Shown here one piece after another: positions 1,647-33,902 of a stretch of DNA of 33,902 nucleotides; the stretch's first letter is position 1; every line of letters begins with the position of its first letter. The position numbers were made by a program, and so were the translations under genes. This stretch comes from Perkinsus olseni (lineage: Eukaryota). Location of the stretch: assembly GCA_013115125.1 (NCBI GenBank), contig JABANN010000380.1, forward strand, positions 1 to 33,902, given 5' to 3'. The notes under the pieces are model-generated. The model saw nothing but the letters and a program-made list of their open reading frames with translations, searched no databases and was not told where the DNA came from.

Positions 1647-1851
1647 ATTCATGACATGAATTTCATGCCTTCAGTGACACTGAATCAGTGTATATCCCGC
1701 AGCCTCTCCAGGCTGCGCCGCAGCTGCTGCGGCAGCGGCTGCCGGGCAGCCTGACTACGTGATTGACAGTTAACACTGTGAACTTCACAGTCTGTCAGGA
1801 GAAACTAACCATCATGGTTAGTGTTATCACTAGAACCCGGCATTAGTGATA
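1647..1851. repeat. Chain of overlapping short palindromes
   Basis: ATTCATG-A-CATGAAT, CATGAA-T-TTCATG, TTCAGTG-A-CACTGAA, CACTGA-A-TCAGTG, GCCGCAGC-T-GCTGCGGC, GGCAGC-G-GCTGCC, GGCTGCC-G-GGCAGCC, ACTGTGAA-C-TTCACAGT and ACTAACCAT-C-ATGGTTAGT, all read directly from the sequence. Confidence 0.9.
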
Positions 1852-2482
1852 CTGATAGAAGCCTGATGTTTTACGAATACAGCAGGAACAAATACCACCA
1901 ACGCTAGGGGACAGGTGGATTGCGTGGCCACACAATCATAGTTCAACCATGATTAGTTTTCGCTACTGGCAGTCAATGACTGTCAATCACAGGACGACCA
2001 ATCCTGCCGAAATGTATATGAATGAAGAAGACTCTCGAAATGACCCAGTTGGTCGCACCAGCATCCGAATTTCGGATTATCCTCATTCTGCGAGATGAGC
2101 CGGGCTGATGCATTATTCGAGACTGTTGTTATTTCCCTCTTGACTTAACAAAACCATGCTTCAGCCAGTAACAGGGATATAGGAAGAGATACTGATCTGA
2201 TGCTCAAATATGCACCACAATATCGTAATAACATTAAAATGACGTGGTCTAGCCAGGAGGGACAAATGCACAGTCTAGCTCAGAGAATTACACAAGAGTA
2301 TCACAAATTATGGTACCCATGACGGAGGGAGTTGGGGTGCAAACAACACAAGGTTCTGAACTACAGATTCGGCTTGCAAATCAGAACCCGTCAGACTCAC
2401 AGTCACAGTCTCACTCACTCACAGACTGACCATATGACGCCGCCTCGAGCTGACAAGATATCACAAGCATGATGAAGGCCCT

Positions 2483-3085
2483 TCATTGAAGGATGCCCCA
2501 TAGCTTCTCATCCAATCTCGGAAGGCATTCTCTCGCGAGTGGTTGAGTGGTAAGAAAATTCGAGCGTAGTTCGATACGCGTCTCAAGAAAATATTCGTCA
2601 ATCCTATTTAATCGTGGCGATTCACTGAGGAAGCTCTCGACGCCAAAGTTCTCTAGGGCGTTAAAACCCCGGCATTTTTGGGACAGAAACTTTGAGAGCA
2701 GGACAAAGATTTTGTCCCACGTCACCGATGTCGTCGTCAATCGATCAGCCACCCAACAACGCACATTGTGCGTGTACGCTATACTGAGTGTAATGCGATA
2801 GCCAGCATGGCTGGCTATTTTCAGCGTGGCGGAAGTGGTACTGCAAAAGAAGAATAGAAGACAGTCTCTGTGGAATGTGTGTGTGGGTCTGTTGCCAGGC
2901 ATTACACGTCTATGACCTATCGCCCTTAGACATACAATAGCCGACTCTGAGCGATCCCGAGTAGGCCCGACAACAGCAATCCCCTGCGACCAAGTGAGAC
3001 GGATTGAGAGCGCAAACAACGATCGGCGGGGGAGGGAGAGATACCGTAGCGATAACCTCCGCAAGCAGCGTGATACGTGGAGCAC
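2483..3085 (-). CDS. Hypothetical protein (probably spliced; C-terminal half looks coding)
   Basis: 200-codon open frame with a helical, protein-like C-terminal part (WDKIFVLLSKFLSQ...RLDEKLWGILQ). No recognisable family. Confidence 0.3.
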   Translation of the reverse strand: MLHVSRCLRRLSLRYLSLPRRSLFALSIRLTWSQGIAVVGPTRDRSESAIVCLRAIGHRRVMPGNRPTHTFHRDCLLFFFCSTTSATLKIASHAGYRITLSIAYTHNVRCWVADRLTTTSVTWDKIFVLLSKFLSQKCRGFNALENFGVESFLSESPRLNRIDEYFLETRIELRSNFLTTQPLARECLPRLDEKLWGILQ

Positions 3086-3534
3086 CTCCTTCGCAGCCCA
3101 TAGCTAAACCCAGTGAGGAGTGCAACTGCCGATGAGGCTCATCGTAAGGCGCAGAGCCAAACGTTATGCGACGCGAGCACACCAGTTATCGACTCTGCTA
3201 GTATACTGTGAAAGTATAAGAAACAATAAGGTTGATGTTTGGTTGACACTAGGTACACGAACAAGGTGAGGACGATAAGAGGGGACGCATGCCGTCGAGC
3301 CATCCTCGGTCATGGATGTATGAGTGATGGCAAGCCCGGCCCCAGTTTCGATCTGACCATCTGTTTGCTGGTCAGTGACCCCCATGCCACGATCAGGCAC
3401 TGGGACCAATGGGGGCCCAGAATGTGAGGCGTGCATTGCACATCAAACGGCACGCGTGAACAGTAATTTCGTGGCGCGCGACATCTTCAGTGCGTTGTTG
3501 TTCGAGGCGTTGGTCAGCACATGGCACTTCTATA

Positions 3535-4281
3535 ATGCAGTTGCCTGCGACAAACGACGTTGCTGAAGAAGTGGCTTCTTCCGAAGTGTCTTCCCCTCGA
3601 GCAGCATCTGAGTCAACCACCGACTCCGAGGTTGAAGGTCACACTCCTGCACATCGCAGAATAAAAGATACTCCCGACTCCGCGGTCAAGTACCATTCAG
3701 CCAGCACCTTACGTCGCTGCGCCACGAAATTACCAGCTTTGCTGATCACCCTTTTCCTCGAGCTCATCCCGGCTTTGGTCTACTCAAACGGCTACTCCCT
3801 TCTCGAGCCCTACATCGGTGAGGAGAAGTCCAACCTCTTCATCGCCCTCAACTCCCTCGTCGCCGCGGTCGCCGGTAATTTCGCCCTGCAAAACAGCAGC
3901 AACATGTCACGAGCCATCTCAATCGGTATCATTACCAAAGACAGATGGATGGGCCACGCTTTCAAGGAGTTCCTCCTCGGTTGTGTGCTCTCGGTTGAAC
4001 TGGGCGTGCTCTTCTTCGTCATCACCGGCTTCGTCATCTCCCCCATTCTCTTCCACGGCGAAGTCGATGCGACTTTGGGTGGCGTCCTGGCTTTAGTCTT
4101 TATTGTATCTACAACGATTGGATCTTTTTCGGGGCTGATCACCCCACCCGTTCTTTATTTTTTCTTGCGGCTCGATCCTTCGGCGTGCGCTGGACCGGGT
4201 GAGACTTGCTTCCAGGACGTTGTGGGCTCGGTTGTGATGGTCTACATGGCTCAAGGAGTCTTCGCATTGGGTAGAGGGTGA
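3535..4281 (+). CDS. MgtE-type magnesium/divalent cation transporter, membrane domain only, intronless (248 aa from ATG 3535)
   Basis: MgtE transmembrane motifs: KLPALLITLFLE (RLPWL-like), VAGNFALQNSSNMSRAI (GN..Q....R), FKEFLLG and LRLDPSACAGPGETCFQDVVG (DPA.asgP..T...D). About five hydrophobic helices. Confidence 0.88.
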   Translation: MQLPATNDVAEEVASSEVSSPRAASESTTDSEVEGHTPAHRRIKDTPDSAVKYHSASTLRRCATKLPALLITLFLELIPALVYSNGYSLLEPYIGEEKSNLFIALNSLVAAVAGNFALQNSSNMSRAISIGIITKDRWMGHAFKEFLLGCVLSVELGVLFFVITGFVISPILFHGEVDATLGGVLALVFIVSTTIGSFSGLITPPVLYFFLRLDPSACAGPGETCFQDVVGSVVMVYMAQGVFALGRG

Positions 4282-4760
4282 AGCACTAGATGAGGTATCT
4301 TAGGTTGATCCGTGCAAGATACAGAATGGCTCAGGGAGTCTTCGCATTGGGTAGAGGGTAAAGCTCTGATTATGTTTTACTTTCATTTCAAATTGAAGGG
4401 GTTGTGCTCGAGTTAGACGGGGTATCTTAGGTCGATCCGTGCAAGATACAAATAACTGGATCGGGTATCTAAGGTTGATCCTAGAATGATTGAGACTAGC
4501 TCAGGAAGTCTTCGCATTGGGTAGAGGGTAAAGGAGCATTATGCTCAATTAGTTGCAAATTGTGGCGAATCGTTGTGCTCGAGTTACGTGGGGTATCTTA
4601 GGTCGATCCGTGCAAGATACAAATAACTGGATCGGGTATCAAAGGTTGATCCTAGCATGATACAGAATGACCCAAGATCGAGATCGAACATGTCTCGAAA
4701 CTACCAAGCTCCAGTGACAATATGATTCTGGAGTATCTCAGGTCGATCCATGCATGATAC
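4246..4760 (+). repeat. Degenerate tandem repeat (periods ~80 and ~170 bp) containing copies of the MgtE 3' end and a GTATCTT...AAGATAC hairpin motif
   Basis: GCTCARGRAGTCTTCGCATTGGGTAGAGGGT at ~4249, ~4329 and ~4499. The block GTTGTGCTCGAGTT...GGTATCTTAGGTCGATCCGTGCAAGATACAAATAACTGGATCGGGTATC occurs at ~4401 and ~4572. Confidence 0.9.
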
Positions 4761-4820
4761 GAAGTAGCTCAAGTTTCATCTATGGTTTCCTCTTCTTCCC
4801 TCTCATCAACATGGCCCGGC

Positions 4821-6321
4821 ATGCTGCCCTCCCTCTCCATCTCCACCATCAGTACCATCAACCCCCGGTCTGTCTTCGCCTTCTACATCGTCTCTCGTGA
4901 CGGCTCCCTTCTCTACGACTACGAGTCACTCACGGCTGAGCAGCGGCCCTCTGCCAATGACAAGATACGCTGGAGCAGCACCTTCCACACGCTTTCCGCT
5001 ATCGCAGCCAGCCTGTCTCCGGTGAGAACCTTCCCGTTGTCGAATTACAATTGCTTAGTGTCTTTCCCAGTCGTCACGTGAGGCCTTAGAACCCCCGTAC
5101 TGTGCGTGTCATTCAATAGACGAGTGTGGTACCGCAATTTTAGAATGGATTCCAAGTCTCACTGAACGGGTGGTTAGGAGTAAGGAACTGTTGATTGCTT
5201 CGCAGTATCCCCGTGGCTCAACCGCCTTTGCATGCGCGTTGCGGCGGGTTCGAGTAGCGCTAGTGAGTAATTCTGTAACTCAAGAGTCGATTCTTAAATT
5301 GATTTTCACGCGTTGCCTCGGATCCTGCCAGGAGAAAAGGAAGCTTCTCTGTTAGAGTGTGCCCCTGAGGGAAGCTTCTTGACGATCCGTCGAATTGCAT
5401 TGCATGTCAACGCTACAGAGAGTCCCTAACTGAGCCCGGAACCGCAAGCGTTGGACTGTATACTCACCCGCGTTACATGCGGTTCCAGAATCGATTCTGA
5501 GCTTCACAATCTTTCTGTCAGACCCTCCCAGCATCCGGCCACGGCTCAGCAGGCGGCGGTGGTTCGAAATTGGAGTACCTCAACCCGAGGGGCATCAAGA
5601 CCATTCGCGGCGACTCCTATAGTGTCCACTGCATGACCGTTATTTCTGGTAGGCTTCTTCGCTCCGCTAACTGATTTACTTCAGAAAGCATTCAACGCTT
5701 CTACTCGGAGCGTCGATTACAGTGACGGGAAATATTTGATTTTTTTAATAATTTTAATAGATAATAATACAGTATTTTGAGCATTTGATATAATTGAGAT
5801 TAATACATAATAACTGATAAATATTTTTTGGGAATTTTCGATGAAAGGTGGATTTCCCGTTGTACTTCACTGCTTTTATGGCTGTGTATTTGCACGAGGC
5901 CGTGTTGTCCCGAATCGAGCTCAGCGATGGGCGTCTTCGGTAGAAGTGTCTTCCCTGCGGCTGATCGATTCGCGACACGAGCTCTTCTCCATTTCGATAA
6001 AATTATTTATTTTTATGACGCTTTATTTTTTGTATTTTTGCTCAGGTACTAAAGGCTTCGCCGTCTGCGCGCCTGCCTTCCCCGAAAGTGTCGCCCAGGA
6101 GCTGCTAGCCCAAATGTAATTAATTACAGTCGATTTTTCATACCACACCTTTCGCAGATTTATATACTTCTGCGACTACGTGATGAAGAACCCTTTCTAC
6201 GAGCTCGGCATGCCCGCCCGGTGTAAGCAGTTCGACGATCGTGTTCAACAGCTACTAGGAAAGTACGACGAATGCTTGACGAATGGCATGAGATTATTTC
6301 CGTTTTTTCAGGTACAAGTGA
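4821..6321 (+). CDS. TRS23: TRAPP complex subunit Trs23/TRAPPC4 (sybindin family); exons 4821-5021, 5522-5648, 6046-6115, 6158-6262, 6312-6321 (upstream in-frame ATG at 4782 also possible)
   Basis: Spliced translation: VFAFYIVSRDGSLLYDY...SANDKIRWSSTFHTLSAIAASLSP / ...RGIKTIRGDSYSVHCMTVISG / TKGFAVC...ELLAQI / FIYFCDYVMKNPFYELGMPARCKQFD. These are the diagnostic Trs23 motifs. All introns are GT-AG with consistent phase. Confidence 0.9.
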
Positions 6322-6796
6322 GCAGCACTTTTTGCCGTAAAATTAAGATTTACAATATTTCCCGTGGTACGATGTTTCGTTGGTTTGGCGGGTGGTAGTC
6401 ATCTTCGATGGTCCGATCAGCGATGGAACAGGATCTCGATAACACGGTTTGCATTTTCTCAGTCATTTCCCTGGTCTCCCGGGCGGAGTTTCTTACCGCT
6501 ATTCCTTATCTTAGCACAAAATCATGTCGAGCTCCTACTTGGCTTTGCGGGTCGTTACACGGTGGCGGAATCTTGAGAATCGTCGCTTGATATCCCGATC
6601 ATTCACAGGATATGGTCTCCATCAATTGTTGGTGTTCTTTGAATCCTTGCCTGCGTCACCAGGTGAGTACAGGGTGTCTAGGCATCACAAATTTACGTTT
6701 ATCGCGATGGAAAGTTTTTTTGATGATCTTCTCTCTCCCAGCGCTGAGTTTGAGGGAAGAGCACACTCACATTCTTGCAGGATTTCCTCTGCGTGA

Positions 6797-10090: not shown

Positions 10091-10896
10091 CTGGAATCTG
10101 TCCTGAGCAACCGTTGATATTGGTATATCGTGTGGGTAATTTTGAAGGTATGCCAGACTACTTCGCCCATAGAGTCGACCGTGGGACCGCCGGCAAAAAA
10201 TCAAGGCTTCGACAGCATCGGACTTCGTGGTATAACAGTCAGCCTCCTAATTTGCCAATCCGAAGGTCGGAGGTTCAAACCTATGTAGCGGCATATCGAT
10301 AAAAATGTTATCTGTCTGAATTTCTCCCGCGTAGGAGCGTCTCACACTTCGCAAACGAAGCGTCAATGCTTGCTCCCAAGGGGACTCCTTTCGGCACTAC
10401 TACCATGGGGTGGCCTGCTGTACGCCTTGCGCGCGTCGAATGAAAAGACATGCCAATGCGAATGAATGAACTGCGATGCGAGACACTGGGTTCTCTGTTC
10501 GATACAGGCAGCGCTGTTCAAGGTGGCAAAGCTGCTGATGTGCATACTGGAGCCAGAATAGTTGACAGAGCGGCGCAGCTCACTCTTGCAAACACTACTG
10601 CAGACTCTGCAGTGCAGAGACGAACACGTCGGGTTCGATTTGAGCGAACGACACAGCATGAGACGCGAGTACTTTGTGGTAAAGACGCCTGCTGGAGGAT
10701 ACCGATCACCACGCGTGCTTTTCTTTTCGCGAGAGGAACATGCCGGTAGGTTTGCTGTTCCGTCGTCACTAAACTGTTAACAAGTAACTCAACAACAAGA
10801 CAGTGATGGTCAGCGGTAAATCGTGCTGTAGATATCAGGCTGATTGAGTGAGGGAAGTAACCGGTAAAAATCCTGAAGAAGTAAACTAGGCTGCCT

Positions 10897-14356: not shown

Positions 14357-14444
14357 TGTGTCTGCCAAATTGGCAGACACATTGTAAATATTAAATATTG
14401 GCAGTAAATGTCGCCAGTAAATATTGGCAGTGCCAATATTTACT
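14357..14444. repeat. Two perfect palindromes with a 1-nt centre
   Basis: TGTGTCTGCCAA-A-TTGGCAGACACA (14357-14381) and AGTAAATATTGGCA-G-TGCCAATATTTACT (14416-14444). Confidence 0.95.
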
Positions 14445-16080: not shown

Positions 16081-17200
16081 TTAGAAGAAAACAATGAAGA
16101 CAAGAATGTTGGTGCAAAGAAGTCCGGGGAGAACTCGACAGGTGGATTCTCCATTTTGGATTCTCCATATTTGGTTTCCATTTTCTCGCAGTTTTCTCCC
16201 CAAGAATCGCGCTATTTCAGGAAAGCGACGGAATTCTCTTCTTATCGAACTCATCTCATCGTTACAAGAAAAAGATAAACTTTTGCTTAAATTAAGGTAT
16301 TGACTGATTGGCGTGAATTCAATCGCAATCTCGCTTTTGTCAGGTTGATGTGAACTCATGCTTTTGCGTTGTTCTTTGAGTCTTGCGTTCTCAGCAGTGT
16401 ATCTTCTCGCGTCGGCATCCAGTTGATTCTGAGCGCGCCAAAACACTGGTGTTGAGCTTGCTTGTTGGTATTGCTATAAATATCAACTCTACCCTTCATG
16501 ATGGCTCTAGGCTTCATCCGATGAAGTTCCTCGCAGAATCCTTCCAGCTCGGTGAAGCGGTAAGCCAATCCGCTGTAAACTTTACTGTGACAAAGCATTT
16601 TCATCGATTATCCGAGTATGCAGCAAATTGCTCAGCAATTGAATCACTTGGTAGCATTCCTACGTAGGCCGATCGGCGTGAGCGAAATCGAGACTGTTGA
16701 CTCAGCCGAGTCCGGGTATGGAGTCGGGCAGCTCTCGTGTCCTATTGAACCGTGGTGGAAGCCCCCCAACTGCTAGTTGGCATCGGACACGGGCTGCTGC
16801 CTAACTGCTGGCTCTGACACTGATGAAGGTTGAACAGTTCAGATTGAAACGTTCCTTAATAACGAGCAATACATGAATTAGTCATCACGCATTCCTGCTC
16901 TATGGCTTCGACCGACTTCATCTGCATCTTCCTCCATCCTCGCGGTCACCGTCCCAGCCGCCAGTCCTCCGACGGTTGCTCCAGCTGCTGCTATTTATTT
17001 TTTGAACAGTTCAAAGCAAGGCCACTCACTGTTCTCTTTGTTCACTGTTTCCTAGTAGGCTTTGCTAGGCTTGGCACTGGTCATTCGGAGGCTGCTCTCG
17101 GTCAGCATTGCTCTCCCCTTGACCGGTCGCAGGAAGTGGCTTCGAGCTGCGGCTTTGAGTGTCTTCCATATCGATCGCCTTGACGCGCCGTTTTGGCATA
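16081..17200 (-). pseudogene. Probable decayed or unresolved spliced coding segments
   Basis: Protein-like stretches (GLAYRFTELEGFCEELHRMKPRAIMK; NQLDADARRYTAENARLKEQRK) with candidate splice sites, but I could not build a consistent model. Confidence 0.25.
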
Positions 17201-17579: not shown

Positions 17580-18142
17580 ATGATCTCTAGTAGAGATTCT
17601 CTACGAACAAGTCATTCAAGGTTGCTCTGTGCTTGGCACTGCTACAGCCTGCTGTTCACGGCGGCGACTGTGACGTCGGAGATAGTTTCTGCAAGGGAAG
17701 GTTCGGTAATGTCTACTCTTGCAAGATTCGTAAGCAGTCGCCGACTGAGGTGAGGTACTGCAATTTCATCGACGACTGGAAAACGGAGACCCCATGCCTG
17801 TGTGAGGATCCCAATCCACACAAGGATTGTAAATACGGCGACGACTACTGCAAGGACGCATACGGTGTTACCTCCAAATGGGAACTCTACGAGATGTCCC
17901 CTAAGGAAGTTCGCAAATGTAAGTTCATAGACTGGGAAGCTGACTCCAAGTGCCGCTGCGAGGAGGCTCTCCCGACGACCACAACCACCACTCCCGAACC
18001 CATAACCGGCTGCCCCAACCCTCAAGGCGGTAGGTTCTGCCAGTGGCAGGTCGGTAGAACTAGCAAGTGCTACCCCGGTCCAGCCTGGGTCCCTCACGGG
18101 TACTGCAGTGGCTCATCTTTTAAATGCCCTTGCTATCTCTAA
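17580..18142 (+). pseudogene. Secreted protein with three six-Cys modules (copy 1); start region frameshifted by a 14-nt fold-back insertion at 17589-17602
   Basis: ORF 17633..18142 has no in-frame ATG (in-frame TAG at 17591). Deleting AGTAGAGATTCTCT restores ATG ATC TCT ACG AAC AAG... = MISTNKSFKVALCLALLQPAVHG, a signal peptide in frame with the Cys modules. Module 2 also has Trp where module 1 has its third Cys. Confidence 0.75.
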
Positions 18143-18764
18143 TCCCAGGGAGCCTTGAAGTTGTTGATGTTTATTCATGCAATTGGTGTTGATGGCTTTC
18201 ATGTTTTGTTCCGAGTTTCACAATCTCACAGGGTCATGTCGCCGATTGATGGTGAATCGGTAAGGAAATGGACCGCTCGGGATTTGCTCGAGCCGTGGGA
18301 GAGGGAGGCGGTTGAAAGCGGCCACAGAAGGTGTGTTCCGTGTCCTTCTCGAAATCTGCTGTGTCTGATAGGGTTGTCGGGATCATAGCAGTCACGCCAG
18401 ACTAGTGAGTAGTTTCCAATGGTAATTTCCACCTAGTTTATTTACCAGAGGCCATTAAAAAAAGCTGTGCCGAGCGAAGATAGACCTGCAGTCTGAGTGA
18501 AGTGCTGCTTCGCTACAGTACTGACGAGCAAGAACATTTGCGTTCGTTTCTCGGGGTTCTTCAATTGTTTGCTTGAGACGTGCTTACTAAGCACTGCGTA
18601 GCATGGCGCTCGCTGGAGGTCTGCTAAGAGTGGGCTTCTTTTGTAGTATACTAAGTCAACCTAAGATATGAGCAGAAAGCCGGAATTTCGTTGGAAATAT
18701 TCAAGCTAGCATACGCATTGTTGAAGACAATCGGCAGAGTCACTCTGCCAGTGTCGTAATACAG

Positions 18765-20000: not shown

Positions 20001-20103
20001 TAAAGAGTAAGAAGTTCTTACTCTTTAGAAGTTAGAACTCTTTAGAAGTTCTTCCTCTTCTTACTCTTTAGAAGTTCTTCCTCTCTTTGAGAAGTTCTTA
20101 CTA
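20001..20103. repeat. Palindrome plus short tandem ACTCTTTAGAAGTT repeats
   Basis: TAAAGAGTAAGAA-G-TTCTTACTCTTTA (20001-20027), followed by 3-4 copies of (A)CTCTTTAGAAGTT(CTT). Confidence 0.9.
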
Positions 20104-20392
20104 AGAGCAATGCATCTATCAATACTCAACGATTGCTTGCCATGGTGACAACAATAACGTTAATATCTTCTTCTATAACAGTCCTATCATTAGTTCAACT
20201 CCCATAGAACGAGTGACAATGGACAGAGCTTATTAACTGGTTCTCCAGGACTCCTGGAGGCGGAGAACTACTCAATGCTATCTGCGCTGATCCTAGGCCA
20301 ATTTGTATTACTCAGAGTAATTTACTCTCCCATGGAGGTCGTCTCCTAGACTGCATCGCCATTGCCATCGAACGTTTCTTGATTAACTGAGC

Positions 20393-20707
20393 TCAACATC
20401 GCTCGTGAAGCGGGAACCAGTTGCTCTGGTAAGCAGTTTCGCACTCCACGGAAAACATGCCCACATCGCCAGGAAGGCCAACAAAAACTATCTTGACGGG
20501 ATTGGGGCCTTCCGACTCGTAAACGAAATGACCAATGTGCATGTATGCGTTGTCGTCGAGCTTGGGTCCGAGGGAGGGGGTCGGAACTGGAGTTTGGCTA
20601 AGGCCCGAATGTTGATTGGATTCTGGTTGGGGGGCGGGCCGACACTTGCGGTTACCGTGGACCAGAGGGAAGAGAGGAAGGGCTGAGATGATGAGGCGCG
20701 AGATCAT
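20393..20707 (-). pseudogene. 3'-truncated paralogue of the secreted protein at 26292-27173
   Basis: MISRLIISALPLFPLVHGN...YMHIGHFVYESEGPNPVKIVFVGLPGDVGMFSVECE...SNWFPL aligns with MMILRLIASALPFFPLVNGN...YKHIGYFVYEPKGPGLVEMVFVGLPGDVGLFSVKCE...SSWFRL. Homology then stops abruptly near 20400. Confidence 0.85.
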
Positions 20708-20734
20708 TATTGATGAGTGGACAGCAATCTACTC

Positions 20735-20989
20735 CAAGCTTAGCACTATCGATTAGGATGAACGTGATCCTAAGCTTCGTGAGCGAATAGACAGTCCCAA
20801 GGGTACGCAAGCCCAAAAGCAAGGACACCTCCTGCTGTGGAGCGAAGCTGATAATTCCTCAGTGAGGAAGTCCCAGGAGAAAGCAAACTCCATTGGCAAC
20901 GTTAGTGGCGCACACAAGCGCGAGACAACAGATGCCAGGGACCACTGCGCGAGTCCTCCGGGAACGTATTCCGTGGCGCGTGACACGAT
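20735..20989 (+). repeat. ~260-bp non-coding block in three copies (20735-20989, 22752-23003, 29092-29370)
   Basis: Shared TATCGATTAGGATGAACG(C/T)GATCCTAAGCTTCGT...GAATAGACAGTCCC...GTCCTCCGGGAAC...GCGTGACACGATA. Copies 1 and 3 lie upstream of the minus-strand secreted-protein paralogues. Confidence 0.92.
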
Positions 20990-21962
20990 ACTATCGTCGC
21001 ATGGGGTATTTCTCAACCGCGATTGCGGCGCACCTAATGAGCGAGAAAACTACTACACTGATAGTGTTGCACTCAGTGTGATACACTGGTAGTGCAACAC
21101 ACTTTATCCCATTCGCTACCACATGTAGATGCTATTCTATCGCACGCACATTCCTGCGACACTTCGGGGCATTTCGGGTTCGCGACGTGACGTCACGCCC
21201 CGCGGTTGTGTTTAGAGCTTCGGTCGGGACACTGGCTGACTCAAGAGCCATAAGATAGATGAGTAGAAAAGTATGTAGTTAATTAGTTAGTCTTTCATGC
21301 CGTGTATCTTGTGGCAGTTTCAACAAAGATACACTGAATCGGCGCTTGCCCTTGTGCAACAGCGCAAACAGGTTGCTCAATGAGTCAAGCAAAAAGTTAT
21401 TTAGAGGAAGTGCCAGACTCAAAGTGACGGAAGAATCGATGGGTTATGCCTCCAAACATCTTGTAGCGTTGTTTCCGGTGGCAGTTTCCGCGTGCGGCAA
21501 GGTCTACAATGGAGCCACAGTTGTTGCACATCTCTCCATGCTACTTACTCCGTTGCCGGCGCAGGGAAGACTTCCCTGGGAAGTGTACGTGTGCGCTATT
21601 CTACTCAACAACTACGTGTAGAGTGGATTGGATAGAAGAGAATCTCTTCAAGAGATCCGATAAGCAGGAGAGGCGTGGGAAGTGAAATAGCTATTGGGCA
21701 GAAGCTTTGTAGCTATGAAGAATTGTGTGATGGGACGGTGCACGTGTGAGTGAGTTCTAGTCTAACACCGGTTCCGGCTTTGCGAGGCCCTAGCCTATGC
21801 TCAGTCACGGCGAGTCCGACTCAGCTAACCACTTTGTCTCTAGTGTGAGTCACGCTACGTAACTCATATTCCCGGAGTTTCGAATTGAGACACTCGGAAC
21901 GAGTGACTCGGCGAATCGTAGCCCTCACTTGACTCTGAAAGTCTTATAGTATCTTCATCTCG

Positions 21963-22261
21963 ATGGCTGTAGCTCTGAACAGCTTTCAAGTGGTCGTTGT
22001 CCTGGTAATAACTCAACTTGGGTCTCCGGTACATGGCGGCGACTGTGACGTCGGAGATAGTTTCTGCCAAGGAAGGTTTGGTAATGCCTACTCTTGCAGC
22101 AGTCGCCGACTGAGGTGAGGTACTGCAATTTCATCGACGACTGGAAAACGGAGACCCCATGCCTGTGTGAGGATCCCAATCCACACAAGGATTGTAAATA
22201 CGGCGACGACTACTGCAAGGACGCATACGGTGTTACCTCCAAATGGGAACTCTACGAGATG
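21963..22261 (+). pseudogene. Six-Cys-module secreted protein, copy 2 (10-nt deletion frameshift; runs into assembly gap)
   Basis: ATG 21963 gives MAVALNSFQVVVVLVITQLGSPVHGGDCDVGDSFCQGRFGNAYSC. AAGATTCGTA is missing relative to copy 1, and the downstream sequence is identical to copy 1 up to the gap. Confidence 0.85.
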
Positions 22262-22357
22262 NNNNNNNNNNNNNNNNNNNNNNNNNNNNNNNNNNNNNNN
22301 NNNNNNNNNNNNNNNNNNNNNNNNNNNNNNNNNNNNNNNNNNNNNNNNNNNNNNNNN
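22262..22357. other. Assembly gap (96 N)
   Basis: Run of N. Confidence 0.99.
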
Positions 22358-23047
22358 TTTTTCGTCTTCGAAGCGCAAGATTCGGAGTGCAGTACATACG
22401 CCGACTCCTCGTCTGAGTCGGTTAGTGATCTCGCCTTCTGATCTGTTATTCGGAAAGCTGTGGGTTCGAGACCCTCAACCTCTCAATATCACTGTCAGTG
22501 ATTCACTGACTGGCTAATCTCATCATTGCTTGTTTCGTTGTAATCTTTCTGTTGTTTTGTTGAAGCTTAATTTATGACATGAATGCCTGGGCCCCAGGCT
22601 CACACAAAGTTTGTCACACAAGGTTTAACCTTGATCAGTTGAACCAGAGGCATAGCGCCACCACGAATAACGCGACAGTGTCCTGACGACGCCACTTTGA
22701 AAACGAAAGTCCTTGTCTTACAAGGCTTTAGCGTGGATGACAAGGCTTGTAATCCAAGGTCGTATCGATTAGGATGAACGCGATCCTAAGCTTCGTAAGC
22801 GAATAGACAGTCCCAAGGGTACGCGAGCCCAAAATCAAGGACACCTCCTGCTGTGGAACGAAGCTGATAACTCCTCAGTGAGGAAGTCCCAGGGGAAAGC
22901 AAACTCCATAGGCAACGTAGTGGCGCACACAAGGGCGAGACAACACATGCCAGGGACCATTGTGCAAGTCCTCCGGGAACACATTTCGTGGCGCGTGACA
23001 CGATAAGGGGGCGACGCCGCACGGGGTGTATCTCGACTACGATTACT

Positions 23048-23746
23048 TGTTACGCTCAGTCTATGTTTATGCGTGCCGAGTAGTCTGGGCAATAGCTCTT
23101 TCATAAGATCCATCTCACAAGCTCCCTTTGGCCTTGTGTTCCACGTATGAGTAAGAAGAATACAACAGATGGTGGAGAACCCGCTGGCACCCCTCCTGCG
23201 CCTACTACCACTTCTGCGACACCACTACTACCTATATTAACCCTCACTTAGAGCTTCTACGCTATCTACCCCTCACTTACCTCAACCTTCTCTCTGAGGG
23301 ACAATCTACTCATCTCAACGCCCTCTCTGAAGGACACTCACGTGAACTCAATTCACACAATCAACTCACCAAGCTTGAAAATGGCTACTCATAAACGGTC
23401 TGACGAGCTTCAACCCTCATGAACCATCTACCTAACCACTCTACCCCTACTACTGTGTACTACAACTTCAACAACGTCGCATCTGTAAAAAATACTGTTC
23501 GGGCCACACCACGTCGAACAAGCTTCCTACTCTGGAACAGTGGATATGAACTTCTTACATCCATCTCTCTACTTTCACATTACTCGCTCAGTCTACCGAC
23601 CAAGTAGAACCTAGGGGGGTGAGATTTGTTACGCTCCGTGTATGCTTATGCGTGTAGAGTAGTCTGGGCAATAGCTCTTTCATAAGATCCATCTCACAAG
23701 CTCCCTTTGGCCTTGTGTTCCACGTATGAGTAAGAAGAATACAACA
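23048..23746 (+). mobile_element. Non-autonomous LTR retroelement (TRIM), 699 bp
   Basis: 120-bp LTRs at 23048-23167 and 23627-23746 (TGTTAC...ACAACA). 5-bp TSD TTACT at 23043-23047 and 23747-23751. PBS TGGTGGAGAA at 23170 is complementary to a tRNA-Ala-type 3' end. Purine tract AGGGGGGTGAGA at 23613-23624. Empty site in the paralogous unit at ~21030. Confidence 0.93.
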
Positions 23747-24124
23747 TTACTGCGCACTTCCTTACTGAGTACACAGTGTACACACTCATGCGTAAGTGAC
23801 TTACGAATGAGTGAGAAAACTACAACATTCACAGTGTTACATCCAGTGTGATACACTGACAGTGTAATACACTGTAGCCCATTCGCTCCCACACGCAGAT
23901 GTTACTCTATCGCACGTACATTCATGAGATACCCCGATCCCCCATTTCGGGTTCGTGACGCCACGCTCCGCGGCTGCTTAATGAGTCGAGGAAAACTTCG
24001 TTGTGCCAGACTCTAAGTAACGGCAGAATCGACGGGTTATGCACCCAAACATCTTGTAGCGTTGTTTCCGGTGGCAGTCTTCGCGTGCGGCCAGGTCTAC
24101 TGTAGTCTACAAATTTTAGACTAT

Positions 24125-24195
24125 GGGAGATATGCGCTGACTGTGGTGGCATTGTAGACCGTCTACAATGCCATCACAGTCAGCGCATATCTCCC
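24125..24195. repeat. 71-bp palindrome (35-bp arms, 1 mismatch, 1-nt centre)
   Basis: GGGAGATATGCGCTGACTGTGGTGGCATTGTAGAC-C-GTCTACAATGCCATCACAGTCAGCGCATATCTCCC. Confidence 0.95.
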
Positions 24196-24494
24196 CATAC
24201 TGCTCACGTGGCCCCGGGCGCAGGGAAGTGCGCGTGTGAGTGAGTTATAGTCCAACACCGGTTCCGGCTTAGTCAGGCCCTAGCCAATATGCTCAGTAAT
24301 GGCGAGGCAGACTCGCCGAGTCGCGATACCAATATGGGTCAATAGGTGACTTAGCCTTCCGCAACTCAGGGTACAGCTCTAGTCACTGGAATCTAGTGAA
24401 AGCTACGCTGCGTAACTCATATTTCAGGAGCTTCGGATTGAGACTCTCAGTGATATCTTGGCACTCACACGATTCTGAAAGTGTCTTCATCTTC

Positions 24495-24975
24495 ATGGCT
24501 GTATCTTTGAACAGCTTTCGAGTGATTGTTGTCCCGGGTAAAACCTTGCTGGGGTCTCCGGTTACCGGAGTCCGGTACACGGCGGCGACTGTGACGTCGG
24601 CGATAGTTTCTGCCAAGGAGAGGTTTGGCAATGTCTACTCTTGCAAGATTCGTAAGCAGTCCCCGACTGAGGTGAGGTACTGCAACTTCATCGACGACTG
24701 GAAAACGGAGTCTCCATGCTTTTCTGACGAACCTAATTCGCCCGACGATGGTAAATAAGGAGACGACTATTGCAAGGACGCGTATGGCATTACCTCCGGC
24801 GTCCCCATAAGAAGTTCGCGAATGCAGGTTGATAGAATGGACGGCTGACTCCGGGTTTCGCTGCGAAAAGGCCCTCCAGACTAACACATCCGCCACTCCC
24901 GTCCCCATAGCCGATTCCTCTAATCCCCGAGGCAATAGGTTCTACCAGCGGCGTGCCGATAGACCGAGCAAGTGA
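24495..24975 (+). pseudogene. Six-Cys-module secreted protein, copy 3 (multiple frameshifts and stops)
   Basis: MAVSLNSFRVIVV... leader like copy 2, then RFGNVYSCKIRKQSPTEVRYCNFIDDWKTESPC. Contains a 14-nt palindromic insertion at ~24563, a +1 insertion, an in-frame TAA at 24756 and deletions. Confidence 0.88.
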
Positions 24976-25924
24976 AAACTTGTTACCATATTTAATCCGC
25001 GTAGAGCAACAAGCAAGTCTCATTCTCATTCGGACCGAATGATTCGGTCAAAGCTCAGAATTCAAGCATGCCTGCAAATTGCAGAGACCAGAAATGATTG
25101 ATCGTTGAGTCATTTTGAGTGGTGAGCGCCGGATGTGATTCAGACATACTCGCTCGTTAAATATCCCGCTCCTGGTCCCGTGGGTCTGGGAGGTCGGTTC
25201 GGTACGAACCGGCCCGTGAAGCACCGACGAGGGCAAGACACCTGGCGACCCAGAGCCTGAGTCTGCCGACAGTGCGTGTCTACACCCTCTTCGGTACTTG
25301 CTCCCGGGAGTGGTGGGATGGGGAGAAAATCAATCATCGCCGTCTAGCCTTAACCGGGTCACGGCAGGTGGGACGTGGTCGAAGCCCGCTCGCCTCACGG
25401 TTTCATGCCTACGCCACCAACTATGGCGGAGCGACGTGACCATCCGTATCGGTATTTAACCTAGTTTAACAAGTTAACCTTCATAAAAACGCTCGCTCAG
25501 AAAACGTCGCACCATGTGGAGTTCCAGTGATGCGTAAGGTGTGAGTGCGAATGACAACAGCATAGCCTCTCTTTATCGCATTCCGGTGGATAGCTGAACT
25601 CCCATTGGCAACGGGCCAATTCCTCCTCGGCACCCAAGGGATGACTGAGTCGAGTATTCACGTGTGCACTATAAACTCAGTTCAGCGGCTATATGAGACG
25701 GGGCTCAAAGAGCCAAGTAACCGAACTCAAGGAGGTCGGGGCAAACGTGTGTCCACTCGCGTGGCGAGGAATGCGCGGTTGCCGCGACGATTGCTTAGAC
25801 ATAGAGCAGATGCAAACAGAGACTCAGCAGCTATGGTCCATAGCCTCCATAGCCTATGGAGGTGGTTGAAACTATAGGGCACGGCGAGCATTGCACGTGG
25901 CAAGGAAGACAAGCAGTGTGCGGG

Positions 25925-26022
25925 CCACACAATGTGACCCACACAACGTGACGCACACAACGTGACCCACACAACGTGACCCACACAACGTGACCCACAC
26001 AACGTGACCCACACAACGTGAC
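25925..26022. repeat. Minisatellite, 14-bp unit CCACACAACGTGAC x7
   Basis: Seven contiguous units with two single-base variants and no spacers. Confidence 0.97.
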
Positions 26023-26023
26023 G

Positions 26024-26088
26024 TGGCAAAAGCGGATGAAGTCTTTCGTCCTCTCGCTATTCGAGACTCATCAGCGTCCGCTCTGCCA
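26024..26088 (-). ncRNA. Candidate type I hammerhead ribozyme with minimal stem III
   Basis: The minus strand reads UGGCAGAGCGGACG-CUGAUGA-GUCUCGAAUAGCGAGAGGAC-GAAA-GAC-UU-CAUCCGCUUUUGCCA. It has the complete core, a G-C-closed stem II and a ~13-bp stem I (one C.A mismatch, one bulge). Confidence 0.6.
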
Positions 26089-26291
26089 GATAGTCACTAG
26101 GAATGAATCGAGTACTCATCCTCATCGAGGTGGTACTTCTGTCGTGTTCGGTCTAGCAGCACAATATCTCCCTGGTAAACGTGATTCGTATAGTATGATC
26201 TGTTGATGCGACCAACAACAAGTGCTGCCATTCGGAATGGCCCATTCCTACCATTACTGATCCCCCTTCGTAGGTTGCTGTCTACTTACCA

Positions 26292-27173
26292 ATGATGATT
26301 TTGCGCCTTATCGCCTCAGCTCTTCCTTTCTTCCCTCTGGTCAACGGTAATTGCAAGGCCCGCCCCGCTCTCACATCGGCATCTCCTCAACGTTCGAGCC
26401 TTGGCCAAGCTCTTTCTTTGACCGCCTACCGCGTGCCTGGGGTCAATGACGACTCGTATAAGCATATTGGCTATTTTGTTTACGAGCCGAAGGGACCCGG
26501 TCTCGTTGAGATGGTTTTTGTTGGCCTTCCTGGTGATGTGGGCTTGTTTTCAGTGAAGTGTGAACACGCTTCCTATCATAGTAGTTGGTTCCGACTTCGC
26601 CCGAACGGTATAGACAAGGACATCATCCATGTGGTACCGGAGGAGGGTCTTGAGTTCTCAGAGTACGAGAATTGGATAGTTCGAACGGAAGCTGCATGCC
26701 CTGGAGGCGCAATACAAAAACATGATCTAACCGTATTCTACGCCACCGAGGCGGGCGATGTACAGGCTATCATCGGAGGTGTTATTGTTACTCTAAATCG
26801 CACCTGGTTGCCGCTGATTCCGGGACTCTATTCCACCGGCGACTCATCCAAGTTTGGAGTCCAGATGCAGTATAACATCAGCATTGACGGAACCGTTGCT
26901 GTGGAGCTCGGTTGCGCTGGTGGCGGTGTCACCGGTTTCAAGAAGTACAAACTCGTAGGCACGGGCCTCGGTAATCACTACGAGGTGAAACCTACCGTGG
27001 ACGGAGACACGTTGGAGGACCTCGTCGGCAGCCTTGAGGCGGCTTGCCCCGGTGTATCGGGAGATGAAGTTCTCGCGGAAACCTATCAGACTGTGGGATT
27101 TGCGACCGAAGGAGTGATCTTCGTTACTGGCAACTTCTACGAAGGAAATATCCTTCGTAGACAATTTCCTTAA
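26292..27173 (+). CDS. Secreted protein of unknown function (293 aa, intronless, two internally related domains)
   Basis: Long ATG-initiated ORF with signal peptide. Internal repetition (RTEAACPGG...VFYATE vs SLEAACPGV...VGFATE). Two paralogous relics lie elsewhere in the window. Confidence 0.85.
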   Translation: MMILRLIASALPFFPLVNGNCKARPALTSASPQRSSLGQALSLTAYRVPGVNDDSYKHIGYFVYEPKGPGLVEMVFVGLPGDVGLFSVKCEHASYHSSWFRLRPNGIDKDIIHVVPEEGLEFSEYENWIVRTEAACPGGAIQKHDLTVFYATEAGDVQAIIGGVIVTLNRTWLPLIPGLYSTGDSSKFGVQMQYNISIDGTVAVELGCAGGGVTGFKKYKLVGTGLGNHYEVKPTVDGDTLEDLVGSLEAACPGVSGDEVLAETYQTVGFATEGVIFVTGNFYEGNILRRQFP

Positions 27174-27785
27174 CCTTCTCCTGCTAGTTCAACCAACTTC
27201 GTTGTTTGCTCCTTTTTGCAATCGATTTTTCCTCCCTGGGAGAGCATGCAGATCCAGGGACTTTCCCGTCGGTAACCGACGGTCTGATGCAGATTTATAT
27301 TAAACGTTTACTTCAACTGAAGATTCTCTGATCAGTATGATGAGAAGTCAGCGACGAATGTCAAGGAATCGTTCCCCAGACTCCGTTTCACCACTCACTC
27401 ACAATTCGCGATGTTGATTTCAGTTGGTCAGGCAAGGTGTCGATAGGAAATTCCTACAAGAAGTAGTCAACTCAGTTTCGGGCAGAATCTAGCTGTTGAA
27501 GTGGCACCCATAAGAACCAGTTGATGGTACAGTATCTGTCGCCGTTCATTGCCGAATCCACAATCGCACACACGGTGTGTGACACACCAGCTGATAAGTT
27601 GTCGCGTGAACTATTGTCTCCATTGTTTAACAATAGTTTGGCGCTCGGCACTCCTTAAGATTACCTCTTTAGAGTTCAGCTTATTTGTAAGAATGTATTA
27701 TCTACGAGTTGTCAATGAACCTAGCGATCCTCATGGCGACTATCATGCCGAGCCGAATTATTCGATATCATAGATAACTTCCTCT

Positions 27786-27845
27786 TAGTGGTAGTGGTAG
27801 TGGTAGGAGCGCCTGTTATCAAGCGGATGACCCGGGATCGATCCC
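27786..27845 (+). pseudogene. tRNA-like relic (possibly Asn/Asp-derived or a SINE head)
   Basis: A-box-like TAGTGGTAGTGGTAG, anticodon-loop-like CTGTTA and B-box-like GGGATCGATCCC. No acceptor stem is recoverable. Confidence 0.3.
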
Positions 27846-28236
27846 AACAGTAAGCTAGCAGGGGAGAAGTGGCCAGAGTCGTCAATCAGGAGAGATTTTT
27901 TTATCATTATTCTTGCGCGGCGCAAAAATAAGCTTTAACGCGAAACTACCCGACTTGGTCACCAAGATGGGTAGTAGGGTGTGCCTTTGTGTCCACTTGA
28001 TGGGTCCGTCATCTTACGCTGGTCCTCACCGCCACTGACGTCGCGGTGGTAGTGGTGACAGTCACAGAACCCGCTACGTCCTCTTCGACGGTGAGGGCGC
28101 TTGGACACAGGTCGACGTTGCGTAGACATGGAAACACCTAACCCTGATCCGACGGCGCCCGGCTGCCGTGAGTTCCGGGCGTCCGGGTCTCAGGTTTGTG
28201 TTTTCCTCCCGCACTCCCGTATTCAGTCGGATTTTA

Positions 28237-28788
28237 CAGAGGGGAGAAAGGAAGGGCCGAGATGATTGAAGGTCAATTTATTGGGCAAGTTCAACAAGTA
28301 AACGAGTGATCGGTTTGGTTTATGTTATTGCGTTACGCAATTTGCGTAGTGTCCTCCGTTACATGGTGACTTTACCTGAACCCACCCGCCCACACCGTTA
28401 GTTATGTTGGCTGGGACTCCCAGCCTGGGAGGCATGAGCAGAAAGGCGAGGTACGATGTACCTTAATTGTGGTACGCGTCAGAAAACTGACACAAATCAG
28501 AAATGGTCAAGAAATACCAAACCTCGCCTAAGTCATGCGGAGCGAAACATCCACTGACTGGATTCCAGTCTACGGGTTTGCAGCTGCGTGTTCGTTGACG
28601 GGGCACCTAGACGTGCTCAGCCTAGAGTGCCCAAGGATTTTTTGCTCCCACTACCCATTACTCCCAAGTTACGAAACACCATGTAGCGGAACTTCCGCTA
28701 GGAAACCTACTCTGCCCTACACCGAAGGGTGTAGGTAGTTGTGGGATTGCAACGAGTGAACAAGGTTGATGAGGCGGAAGATCATCAT
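28237..28788 (-). pseudogene. 5' relic of a third paralogue of the 26292 gene, split by a 500-bp insertion
   Basis: The upstream CCTTCGTAGGTTGCTG...ATGATG matches 26265-26297. MMIFRLI (28788-28768) continues as ISALPFSPL at 28266-28237. Confidence 0.8.
28267..28766. mobile_element. 500-bp insertion of unknown class flanked by duplicated TGAT
   Basis: TGAT at 28263-28266 and 28767-28770. The paralogue at 20686-20699 reads GAGATGATGAGGCG uninterrupted. Confidence 0.6.
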
Positions 28789-29986
28789 TTGTGAGTGAAC
28801 AGCAACCTACGAAGGAGAATCAGCGATAGACCATCGATTGAAAGCGTGGAAACAGTAGCACGTGTTGTGCAGCGTATTCCCAGTTGAACTGTGACAATTC
28901 ATGACATAACTTCGTCTCCAACTTGATCAGTTCAACCAGAGACATTGTGCCTCTACGAATAACGCGACAGTGTCCTGACGAAACCACCTTGAACACGAAC
29001 GTCGTTGTATTACTGTAATACTATTAGTAATAGTCTATTACAAGGCTTGTATCACAATTGATATTGCCGAAGTTGGATGACAAGGCTTGTAATCCAAGCT
29101 TAGCACTATCGATTAGGATGAACGCGATCCTAAGCTTCGTGAGCGAATAGACAGTCCCGAGGGTACGCAAGCCCAAAATCAAGGACACCTACTGTGGAAC
29201 GAAGCTGATAATTCCTCAGTGAAGTCCCAGGAGAAAGCAAACTCCATAGGCAACGTAGTGGCGCACACAAGCGCGAGACAACAGACGCGGCGTCTGAGAC
29301 GCCACTGGCATCATGCCAGGGACCACTGTCCAAGTCCTCCGGGAACACATTTCGGTGCGCGTGACACGATAGGAACACGACACGGCACGGGGATGGTCGC
29401 ATCTTTCCTCACAATGAGTCCCTCACAGAAAGATAACAACCCCTACGTCTCTGTCAGACAGAGACATGTCTATGTCTCTGAGAGATGTCGCCACCCTATG
29501 TCTCTGAGAGTCCCCAGACTCTGGGGGTCGCCTTGTTGATGATTCGACAGGCCATTGCGGACAGAGAGTATTTGGAGCCAGACTGGCTCAGCCAGTGACC
29601 AAAGTCTCGAGCATGGAAAGTGTTTGTGACGCCAGACACCTAGTCAGGTTATCTCATGAAGAACTCACGTCTATCATCGTCTGCTGCACCGATGAGACTG
29701 GCGCCGGCTAGGCTATCTAAGATAGCGAGTGTTCTCGCAAATCAAGCGGATTGAACTCACTCGCCAATCTGAACGCATCAGCTCCTTCAGTTTGAAACGA
29801 ATCGTTTCGGTAGTTTCATCTCTGCTTGAGGCAGATATAGCGGAGACACTATGACGGAAGTTCCGTCACGGTCAAATGCCGCACCGAGGGTAGCCTACAG
29901 AAAAGTTGATTTTTACAACTTGATGGCTCCCGGGGTGACGAGAAGTTTTGTAGAACGGTAGGCTGAAATAACCGAACTCCGTGAGT

Positions 29987-33821: not shown

Positions 33822-33902
33822 AACAAAACGGACCCGCGCCGATCCACAGCTGTCGAGACGCTCGCATCAGTCATTCCTTACTGCACGGCTCCCCTCATGC
33901 GC

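Follow-up and report, generated by a model that had tools for sequence, protein, structure and literature searches.

A 33,902-nt stretch of Perkinsus olseni DNA (contig JABANN010000380.1 of assembly GCA_013115125.1, positions 1-33,902; hereafter the window) carries chained palindromes that obey a single rule, under which an 8-mer N is converted to N1-7 + revcomp(N) + N2-8, giving 22 bp with a net gain of 14 bp. These scars are probably excision footprints left in non-coding DNA by an hAT-type cut-and-paste DNA transposon, and under this reading the window is a dense record of past transposon jumps and of break mending. Our literature search found no published description of such 22-bp scars.

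The initial annotation had described at least 20 palindromes with a 1-nt spacer, and their abundance is borne out by a sharp peak at spacer 1, where the window contains 132 perfect inverted repeats with arms of at least 6 nt, versus 9.8 on average across 20 dinucleotide shuffles. The peak persists for arms of at least 8 nt (38 versus 0.6) and at least 10 nt (10 versus 0.1), and a spacer-1 palindrome is present at every position where that annotation had placed one. Spacers of 0 and 2-12 yield 6-27 inverted repeats versus 5.4-7.5 in shuffles, i.e., near chance, spacer 0 showing only a small excess (15 versus 7.5). The window also includes a 96-N gap and, at 33722-33822, an alternating G/C run of suspicious appearance; 8 of the 132 palindromes lie inside the run, at 33722-33784, and 124 remain without them. 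Outside the run the commonest arm length is 7 nt (64 of 124 palindromes).

The chaining pointed out in the initial annotation is equally clear, with 22 exact 22-mers of the form N1-7 + rc(N) + N2-8 in the window; such a 22-mer, whether exact or with one mismatch, appeared in none of the 20 shuffles. Exact triple repeats for k = 4 to 13 number 18, 4, 2, 1, 22, 0, 0, 1, 0 and 0, respectively. When k (7-10) and offset (0-3) are varied together, only the (8,1) cell is populated, with 21 exact scars after low-complexity filtering; the (8,0), (9,0) and (9,1) cells hold no exact triple repeat, the (10,3) matches are (8,1) scars read one base wider, and the other combinations are empty apart from short or shifted readings. 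The retained direct repeat N1-7 ... N2-8 is likewise specific to 8-mers (22 exact, versus 1 for k = 7 and none for k = 9 or 10). The palindrome centre is the complement of the base that would border an element, offset 1 being the sole populated offset, and conforms to the centre rule described for hAT footprints in PMC5873905 and PMC1978519. Outside the G/C run, 22 scars are exact, 9 carry one mismatch and 14 carry two; the scars are of mixed ages and decay with age. The 22-bp form is the commonest single outcome, with 22 exact cases versus about 10 exact short-tract forms. Scars occur at about 1.4 per kb over the window, a density that would require very many excisions and in this respect counts against an hAT origin. 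The three coding ORFs recognised by Pfam, like ORF 26292-27173, are free of the 45 scars that have at most two mismatches, as expected because insertions of 14 bp cause frameshifts.

Exact scars are located at 1273..1294 (target GGCTGATC), 1670..1691 (TTCAGTGT), 1730..1751 (CGGCAGCC), 10598..10619 (CTGCAGAG), 17583..17604 (ATCTCTAC), 20307..20328 (ATTACTCT), 21563..21584 (AGGGAAGT), 21635..21656 (GAAGAGAT), 22488..22509 (ATCACTGA), 24556..24577 (CTCCGGTA), 25027..25048 (CATTCGGT), 26227..26248 (GCCATTCC), 27567..27588 (CACACACC), 28327..28348 (ATTGCGTA), 28410..28431 (GCTGGGAG), 29575..29596 (GAGCCAGT), 30410..30431 (CTGTCCCT), 31090..31111 (TACAGTAC), 32346..32367 (ATATGGCG) and 33415..33436 (CACTCGAG). 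Scars with one mismatch are found at 1523..1544 (GGCCTATC), 1647..1668 (ATTCATGT), 1711..1732 (AGCTGCGG; nested, overlapped by the scar at 1730..1751), 1769..1790 (GTTCACAG), 2472..2493 (ATGAAGGG), 16512..16533 (CTTCATCG), 18580..18601 (GTGCTTAG) and 28549..28570 (ATCCAGTC). A short-tract footprint at 24094..24111, composed of N1-7, 4 palindromic bases and N2-8, has the target GGTCTACA.

The scars are insertions, because the 8-mer stands alone, without a scar, in paralogues and in one polymorphism between strains or alleles. All five testable scars, namely those with at most one mismatch and a spanning paralogue in the window (21563, 22488, 24556, 29282 and 29298), face a single ungapped 8-mer; for the first three the paralogues are 24185-24238, 19634-19711 and 21984-22071, respectively. 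The four paralogue comparisons from which the initial annotation had argued for insertion are all upheld: 24563-24576 and 29007-29040 are insertions of 14 and 28 nt relative to 22021 and 22715, respectively; 29286-29312 is a 28-nt insertion that both other copies lack; and 24101-24166 is an inverted copy of its right flank that is missing at 21501. Each of the two 28-nt insertions decodes exactly as two nested 14-nt events. At 29007..29041 an outer scar with target GTATTACA encloses an exact inner scar at 29020-29041 with target ACTATTAC, both absent in paralogue 22675-22751, and at 29282..29319 a scar at GATGCCAG was followed by one at CAGACGCC, two paralogues having neither. An old scar with two mismatches at 20848..20869 is common to the paralogues at 22826-22924 and 29168-29262, with substitutions. 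At the polymorphic scar 28549-28570, exactly 14 nt are missing in a single contig from run X3 (depth 108/234) and in one from X9 (384/384). In X3, which comes from another study, contigs spanning 10 scars match the window without a single difference. Among the paralogues and the run contigs listed, sites are seen in two states only, empty or scarred.

Canonical 22-bp scars do not account for all spacer-1 palindromes. Once 46 scars are removed, about 99 palindromes remain above the shuffles, most of them lacking an ancestral state, and this residual excess is spread over arms of 4 nt (28), 5 (19), 6 (18), 7 (17), 8 (6), 9 (4) and 11-14 nt (7). Orphan palindromes with one central base include those at 1804..1822 (9-nt arms, third segment absent), 14357..14381 and 31796..31820 (12-nt arms), 14416..14444 and 31124..31152 (14-nt arms), 20001..20027 (13-nt arms) and 31386..31408 (11-nt arms). 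A half scar at 20985..20997, with 6-nt arms and a central C, adjoins a deletion of about 13 nt relative to two paralogues, and another at 22619..22633 (7+1+7) falls precisely where the paralogy with 28922 has its left end. The longest, a 71-nt palindrome at 24125..24195, has 35-nt arms around a central C; its left arm is an inverted copy of the right one, which is homologous to 21501-21546.

The restriction to 8-mers at offset 1 points to the duplication of an 8-bp target site and the later closure of hairpins by a transposase one base into the flank. In the proposed pathway, an element would integrate and duplicate an 8-bp target N on either side, 8 bp being the predominant hAT target duplication length given in PMC5499845. 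On excision, the transposase would nick each flank one base in, and the 3'-OH of the flank would attack the opposite strand to form a covalent hairpin that reads N1-7 followed by the complements of N8 and of N7..N1, in that order. Each duplicated copy would therefore lose its element-proximal base on one strand, and the offset would generate the arm + 1 base + reverse-complement arm structure without any loop. Host nucleases would then open the hairpins several bases from the tip, on the 3' side, leaving long 3' overhangs of palindromic P nucleotides. As the target copies are identical, the overhangs, revcomp N on the left and N on the opposite strand on the right, would be complementary over exactly 8 nt; they could anneal, and fill-in and ligation would yield the 22-bp product with its 14 extra bp. 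If annealing failed, joining of one P-tract to a resected end might produce flanking deletions and orphan palindromes, with arms of 4-14 nt and in one case of 35 nt, while repeated visits to one site might produce nested or chained scars. A search of the window revealed no pair of 8-bp direct repeats flanking terminal inverted repeats, and a Pfam search of its 126 ORFs of at least 75 aa gave no transposase-family match. Since the window holds neither donor element nor transposase, the transposon itself is our inference. The flank hairpins and the annealing of their overhangs are proposed steps as well, whereas the geometry, its restriction to k = 8 with offset 1, the derived +14-bp state, the nesting, the polymorphism and the decay with age are directly observed.

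Transposon-independent break repair, either by polymerase-theta-like snap-back self-priming or by replication template switching at spontaneous breaks, was the explanation favoured in the initial annotation. It would suit tracts that are insertions templated on neighbouring sequence, a window in which no transposon was found and some 99 excess single palindromes with variable arms of 4-14 nt. However, such synthesis would give variable arms and spacers, whereas the chained form is limited to the 8-mer, offset-1 register, which self-priming has no cause to measure, and spacers other than 1 are near chance. Moreover, one unpaired central base cannot serve as a self-priming loop, and the 8-mer is directly duplicated in every canonical event, which marks staggered integration. 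The invariant 8-bp register with its 1-base offset fits a target duplication with hAT-type flank hairpins, not free snap-back or polymerase-theta synthesis, and we consider repair of this kind quite improbable as the source of the scars. Part of the original idea stands nonetheless: the process is stereotyped, frequent and templated on neighbouring sequence, presumably via a hairpin intermediate, with 46 scars of 14 bp adding 644 bp of non-coding sequence in 33.7 kb, and its microhomology-joining component survives because annealing of complementary palindromic overhangs is microhomology joining. Self-priming from a 3-nt loop, in contrast, does not accord with the 8-mer, 1-base-offset register.

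A hairpin-on-flank element with 8-bp duplications from another superfamily, such as a Mutator-like element, would share much of this chemistry: PMC5499845 gives target duplications of 8-10 bp for MULEs and of 8 or 9 bp for Muta1, which makes hairpins on flanking DNA. The Muta1 hairpin described there, however, is 43+43 nt from a 43-bp flank, which would imply no 1-base offset and hence a 24-bp N+rc(N)+N product with spacer 0. The window has no such product for k = 8, 9 or 10, only the small spacer-0 excess given above, and empty 9- and 10-bp registers, and Muta1 excisions in yeast are reported in the same paper as precise in more than 90% of cases; we therefore regard this alternative as unlikely. 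That a domesticated transposase-like host nuclease, or abortive integration-excision cycles, makes 8-bp-staggered hairpinned breaks with no resident element would reconcile many scars with the lack of any element in 33.9 kb, as the geometry demands transposase chemistry and not long residence. Yet no candidate gene is seen, and ordinary residence with later excision accounts for these observations by known steps, leaving this a very improbable account. A broader form of the idea, which we hold to be unlikely, is that scars written without a resident element, by a host-retained hAT-like enzyme or abortive integrate-excise cycles, reflect an endogenous mutator that adds 14-bp palindromic modules to non-coding DNA with unusual hairpin opening (nicks 4-14 nt from the tip). 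Such a mutator would follow fixed rules and contribute much of the new sequence and many of the rearrangement breakpoints in Perkinsus. The G/C run and the 96-N gap could suggest a sequencing or assembly artefact; for the scars we reject this as scarcely credible, as 10 of them are identical in contigs from another study, one shows a 14-nt polymorphism, and old scars carry substitutions and recur in paralogues.

In V(D)J coding joints, P nucleotides are palindromic additions produced when a covalently closed hairpin is opened off centre, as we propose for Perkinsus, but V(D)J hairpins have neither the 1-base offset nor a target duplication, and their P-tracts measure 1-4 nt. Polymerase-theta end joining makes short, snap-back templated inverted insertions that are primed by microhomology with a loop of several bases. 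The Perkinsus scars resemble these as short templated inverted insertions at mended breaks; in contrast, template, length and spacer vary in polymerase-theta products, there is no direct 8-mer duplication, and a fixed register would be unexpected. As for hAT elements, Zhou et al. reportedly observed in 2004 that the first Hermes nick is offset by 1 base. The presumed Perkinsus element would resemble Hermes in its 8-bp target duplication and hairpin-capped flanks (PMC10368747; PMC4763223). Hermes prefers nTnnnnAn targets (PMC10368747), and the inferred Perkinsus targets lean weakly in this direction, with T2 in 16/32 and A7 in 10/32 (pooled 26/64, binomial p = 0.004; both in only 4/32). They show further biases as well: T1 and A8 are rare (6/64) and C3/G6 enriched.

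The closest parallel is provided by Ac/Ds footprints in plants, Saccharomyces cerevisiae and Candida albicans. As described in PMC5873905 and PMC1978519, these retain both target copies minus the element-proximal base, bear palindromic P-nucleotide insertions centred on the complement of the lost base, with arms of up to 20 nt in yeast, and involve hairpin opening, microhomology joining and flanking deletions, a repair route that Perkinsus may well share. The Perkinsus footprints differ in being natural, nested and fixed in the genome at about one per kb, and no element is seen with them in the window. A complete 8-nt inverted copy is also not the usual hAT footprint, since the Ac/Ds footprints in these two papers are heterogeneous and mostly carry 1-3 P-nucleotides, whereas in Perkinsus one product, with the complete inverted copy, is the commonest.

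Maximal perfect inverted repeats in the window were counted for each spacer length and compared with 20 dinucleotide-preserving shuffles. With one central base (spacer 1), 132 palindromes with arms of at least 6 nt are observed versus a shuffle mean of 9.8, and 38 versus 0.6 with arms of at least 8 nt; spacers 0 and 2–12 give 6–27 palindromes with arms of at least 6 nt versus 5.4–7.5 in the shuffles. The sharp peak at spacer 1 predicted in the initial annotation is thus found in the window, and a one-base-centred palindrome is present at every coordinate listed there. After exclusion of eight palindromes in a G/C run (33722–33784), 64 of the remaining 124 have the modal arm length of 7 nt. Where palindromes overlap by 7–8 nt, the 22 bases always read N1–7 + revcomp(N1–8) + N2–8, in which N is some 8-mer. 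We refer to this 22-bp tract, 14 bp longer than its 8-mer target, as a canonical scar.

When this rule is generalized to length 3k−2, exact counts for k = 4 to 13 are 18, 4, 2, 1, 22, 0, 0, 1, 0 and 0. Counts at small k are at chance level for patterns so short, and the count at k = 8 is above chance because none of the 20 shuffles held an exact or one-mismatch 22-mer. Outside the G/C run, 22 scars are exact, 31 have at most one mismatch and 45 at most two. A grid of k = 7–10 by offset 0–3, where the offset counts the bases missing from each direct copy at its inner end, is populated only at k = 8/offset 1 (21 exact after low-complexity filtering), the two exact matches at k = 10/offset 3 being canonical scars read 1 base wider. 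No N + revcomp(N) + N occurs in the window for k = 8, 9 or 10, and the other geometries tried (k 4–13, offsets 0–3) were discarded as empty or as shifted readings of canonical scars. Footprints with both target copies and shorter palindromic (P-nucleotide) additions, or P-tracts, are rare in the window (~10 exact), as at 24094 (GGTCTAC-TGTA-GTCTACA), and complex tracts that the rule failed to decode include 1551–1565 and 14384–14450. A scar-like tract at 23851–23875 (ATACACTG ACAGTGTAA TACACTGT) is consistent with a 9-mer register save for one mismatch, has a decayed form in the paralogue at ~21080, and could reflect an uncommon 9-bp duplication or variant repair. The G/C run (33722–33822) consists of alternating C and G blocks of ~5–20 (C10 G11 C10 G6 C5 G9 C19 ...), and could represent either repeated scars in poly-C (target CCCCCCCC giving C7 G8 C7) or a sequencing or assembly artefact.

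Several paralogous blocks within the window allow the tracts to be polarised. All five scars with at most one mismatch and a spanning paralogue (21563, 22488, 24556, 29282 and 29298) are represented in the paralogous sequence by the 8-mer alone, without a gap, bearing out the earlier proposal that the tracts are insertions. The 28-nt insertion at 29282–29319, which two paralogues lack, resolves into a first event at GATGCCAG, a subsequent T-to-C change and a second event at CAGACGCC; likewise, that at 29007–29041, also of 28 nt, resolves into an earlier event at GTATTACA and a later one at ACTATTAC, its outer scar becoming exact once the inner exact scar is collapsed. The scar at 20848 (2 mismatches) is found in all three paralogous copies, with substitutions and a 3-nt deletion, and is therefore older than the duplications. 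Contigs of X3, a sequencing run from a different study than the best-matching run, match 22465–22933, 24681–25122, 26005–27828, 29256–31010 and 31007–32517 without difference and carry ten scars unchanged, which confirms the tracts outside the assembly. At 28550, exactly 14 nt are missing from one contig each of X3 (depth 108/234) and X9, another run compared with the window (384/384), and this absence restores the 8-mer of the scar at 28549–28570. Because the X3 contigs agree and this scar varies by 14 nt, the tracts are real, derived and still polymorphic, and they are of mixed age.

The paralogous patchwork (17654–18069, 19544–19734, 20407–22261, 22358–23044, 23806–24974 and 28922–29392) shows 74–93% identity in direct and inverted order, and a scaffold gap of 96 N (22262–22357) falls within it. 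Block ends at 22630, 23806 and 24100 adjoin one-base-centred palindromes; half scars as a general mark of block ends were rejected, most of the 19 boundary pairs inspected failing.

Scars are unevenly spread, with 8 in 0–2 kb and 11 in 28–30 kb; none lies in 4–10 kb or 12–14 kb, the site of recognised genes, and neither the three ORFs with Pfam matches nor ORF 26292–27173 contains any of the 45. Among 32 inferred targets (scars with at most one mismatch plus the nested one), 16 carry T at the second base (T2) and 10 carry A at the seventh (A7; 26/64 when pooled, p = 0.004), T1 and A8 together amount to only 6/64 (p = 0.0015), and T2 and A7 coincide in just 4. The target logo (rare T1, T2, C3 ... 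G6, A7, rare A8) shows a weak lean towards the hAT preference, given as nTnnnnAn for Hermes in excerpts of PMC10368747.

The rule does not exhaust the palindromes. Among the 95 spacer-1 palindromes with arms of at least 7 nt, the expected third segment is matched at 5 or more of its 7 bases in 60 (chance 4%), and the remaining 35 are orphans that lack it. Once the 46 scars with at most two mismatches, nested included, are removed, residual spacer-1 palindromes number 124 versus 96 in shuffles at arm 4, 43 versus 24 at arm 5, 23 versus 5.4 at arm 6, 18 versus 1.4 at arm 7, 6 versus 0.2 at arm 8, 4 versus 0 at arm 9 and 7 versus 0 at arms 11–14, with no similar residual excess at spacers 0 and 2. 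Those orphans readable against paralogues appear to fit one-sided outcomes of the scar process: at 20985–20997 a ~13-nt deletion abuts a P-tract of 7 bases, and at 24094–24195 a short-tract footprint at GGTCTACA adjoins 35 nt of inverted right-flank sequence whose centre is the complement of N1. Canonical scars are the commonest single product, but perhaps a third to half of all events.

P-nucleotide footprints are textbook for hAT elements, and we consider the scars to be probable excision footprints of a putative hAT-type cut-and-paste transposon. The 8-mer is duplicated in direct orientation and is therefore taken as a target-site duplication, the mark of staggered integration; hAT target duplications are predominantly 8 bp, according to excerpts of PMC5499845. 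For Ac/Ds, PMC5873905 and PMC1978519 describe palindromic insertions centred on the complement of the element-bordering base, and the scars resemble Ac/Ds footprints in that each copy is one base short at its inner end and the complement of this base stands at the palindrome centre. In the proposed route, each flank hairpin would be cut on the 3′ side of its tip, several bases away, leaving revcomp(N) as the left overhang and N, on the other strand, as the right one. Because both target copies are identical, these overhangs would pair across exactly 8 nt, and fill-in and ligation would yield N1–7 + revcomp(N) + N2–8. A range of nick positions would give the same 22-bp product, which would account for its frequency. 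The scars are therefore classed as most likely hAT-type by mechanism; the element itself is only a candidate member of that superfamily.

Footprints of another superfamily that forms hairpins on the flanks by the same mechanism, for example Mutator-like elements (MULEs), seem unlikely. MULEs also make flank hairpins and 8–10-bp duplications, yet, in the same excerpts of PMC5499845, the Muta1 hairpin contained both 43-nt strands entire and Muta1 excisions in yeast were mostly precise, and the offset-0 product predicted from such a hairpin is absent in the window. The initial annotation had instead proposed transposon-independent snap-back or polymerase-theta synthesis; this mechanism, like template switching, leaves the single 8-mer register, the one-base centre and the direct duplication unexplained, and we regard it as rather improbable. 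A covalent hairpin would account for pairing up to a single central base, whereas a self-primed loop could not. We give little credence to a host-encoded hAT-like nuclease or abortive integration–excision as the source, and almost none to the palindromes being a sequencing or assembly artefact, which the X3 agreement, the 14-nt polymorphism and the old, substituted scar common to paralogues exclude for the scars.

No donor element for the favoured hAT-type excision was found in the window. Searches for 8-bp exact repeats flanking 12-nt inverted ends, and for 10-nt exact inverted ends with at most two mismatches in the flanks, returned only matches that either fall in the G/C run or lack convincing duplications, and none of the 126 window ORFs of at least 75 aa matches a transposase family in Pfam. 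From the 25 longest inverted-repeat pairs, 32436/33216 and 26257/28768 were rejected as element ends, having no matching 8-bp flanks. ORF 26292–27173 (+; 293 aa, intron-less, no Pfam match) was likewise rejected as a transposase, an Atlas search placing it in clusters of ~100 proteins restricted to Perkinsozoa. An exact 1060-nt contig (26291–27350) from what is probably an RNA run covers this ORF at high depth; inverted repeats of 56 nt (26257–26312/28768–28823, 84%) flank it, and a diverged inverted copy is located at 20407–20732. Separately, a small LTR-type element at 23047–23746 looks like a miniature terminal-repeat retrotransposon because its ~460-bp interior lacks a long ORF; its 121-bp direct repeats (23047–23167/23626–23746, 96% alike) start with TG, end with CA and stand between the two copies of a 5-bp duplication (TTACT), and contigs of other runs cover the repeat at very high depth.

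The window is eukaryotic nuclear DNA, with G+C of ~50% from end to end. Pfam matches are limited to MgtE (3460–4278, +), Sybindin (4758–6395, +, split) and a mitochondrial carrier (Mito_carr; 12534–13478, −) among the 126 ORFs; the carrier is 100% identical to "hypothetical protein FOZ61_009019 [Perkinsus olseni]", with relatives at 88% identity in P. chesapeaki and 78% in P. marinus. Rfam gave no match on the window at gathering score, and no RNA dataset containing the stretch is listed. Tandem repeats occur directly past the MgtE ORF (4246–4661; units of ~170 nt, 82% identity) and at 11069–11552 (units of ~66–160 nt, 70–81% identity), inside long overlapping ORFs (10885–11817).

If the hAT-footprint reading is true, non-coding DNA of Perkinsus holds a countable, datable record of transposon excision, here at ~1 scar per kb, and annotators should take such palindromes as scars, not as RNA hairpins or binding sites. 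It would also reveal how the parasite handles hairpin-capped breaks, with long P-tracts and annealed complementary overhangs, a matter on which data ordinarily come from reporter assays. P-tracts of such length would point to hairpins being opened otherwise than by a nick of the Artemis kind at the tip. As a simple pattern, the 22-bp rule can be applied to any genome, and it accounts for part of the indel polymorphism among strains and paralogues. A full-text search of a limited open-access collection found no published description of these Perkinsus scars and nothing relevant on Perkinsus end-joining genes. In contrast to known hAT footprints, the commonest product here contains all 8 nt of the target as an inverted copy; the scars differ further in their density, with 45 recognisable across 33.7 kb, in their nesting and in forming a natural record that is fixed and partly polymorphic.
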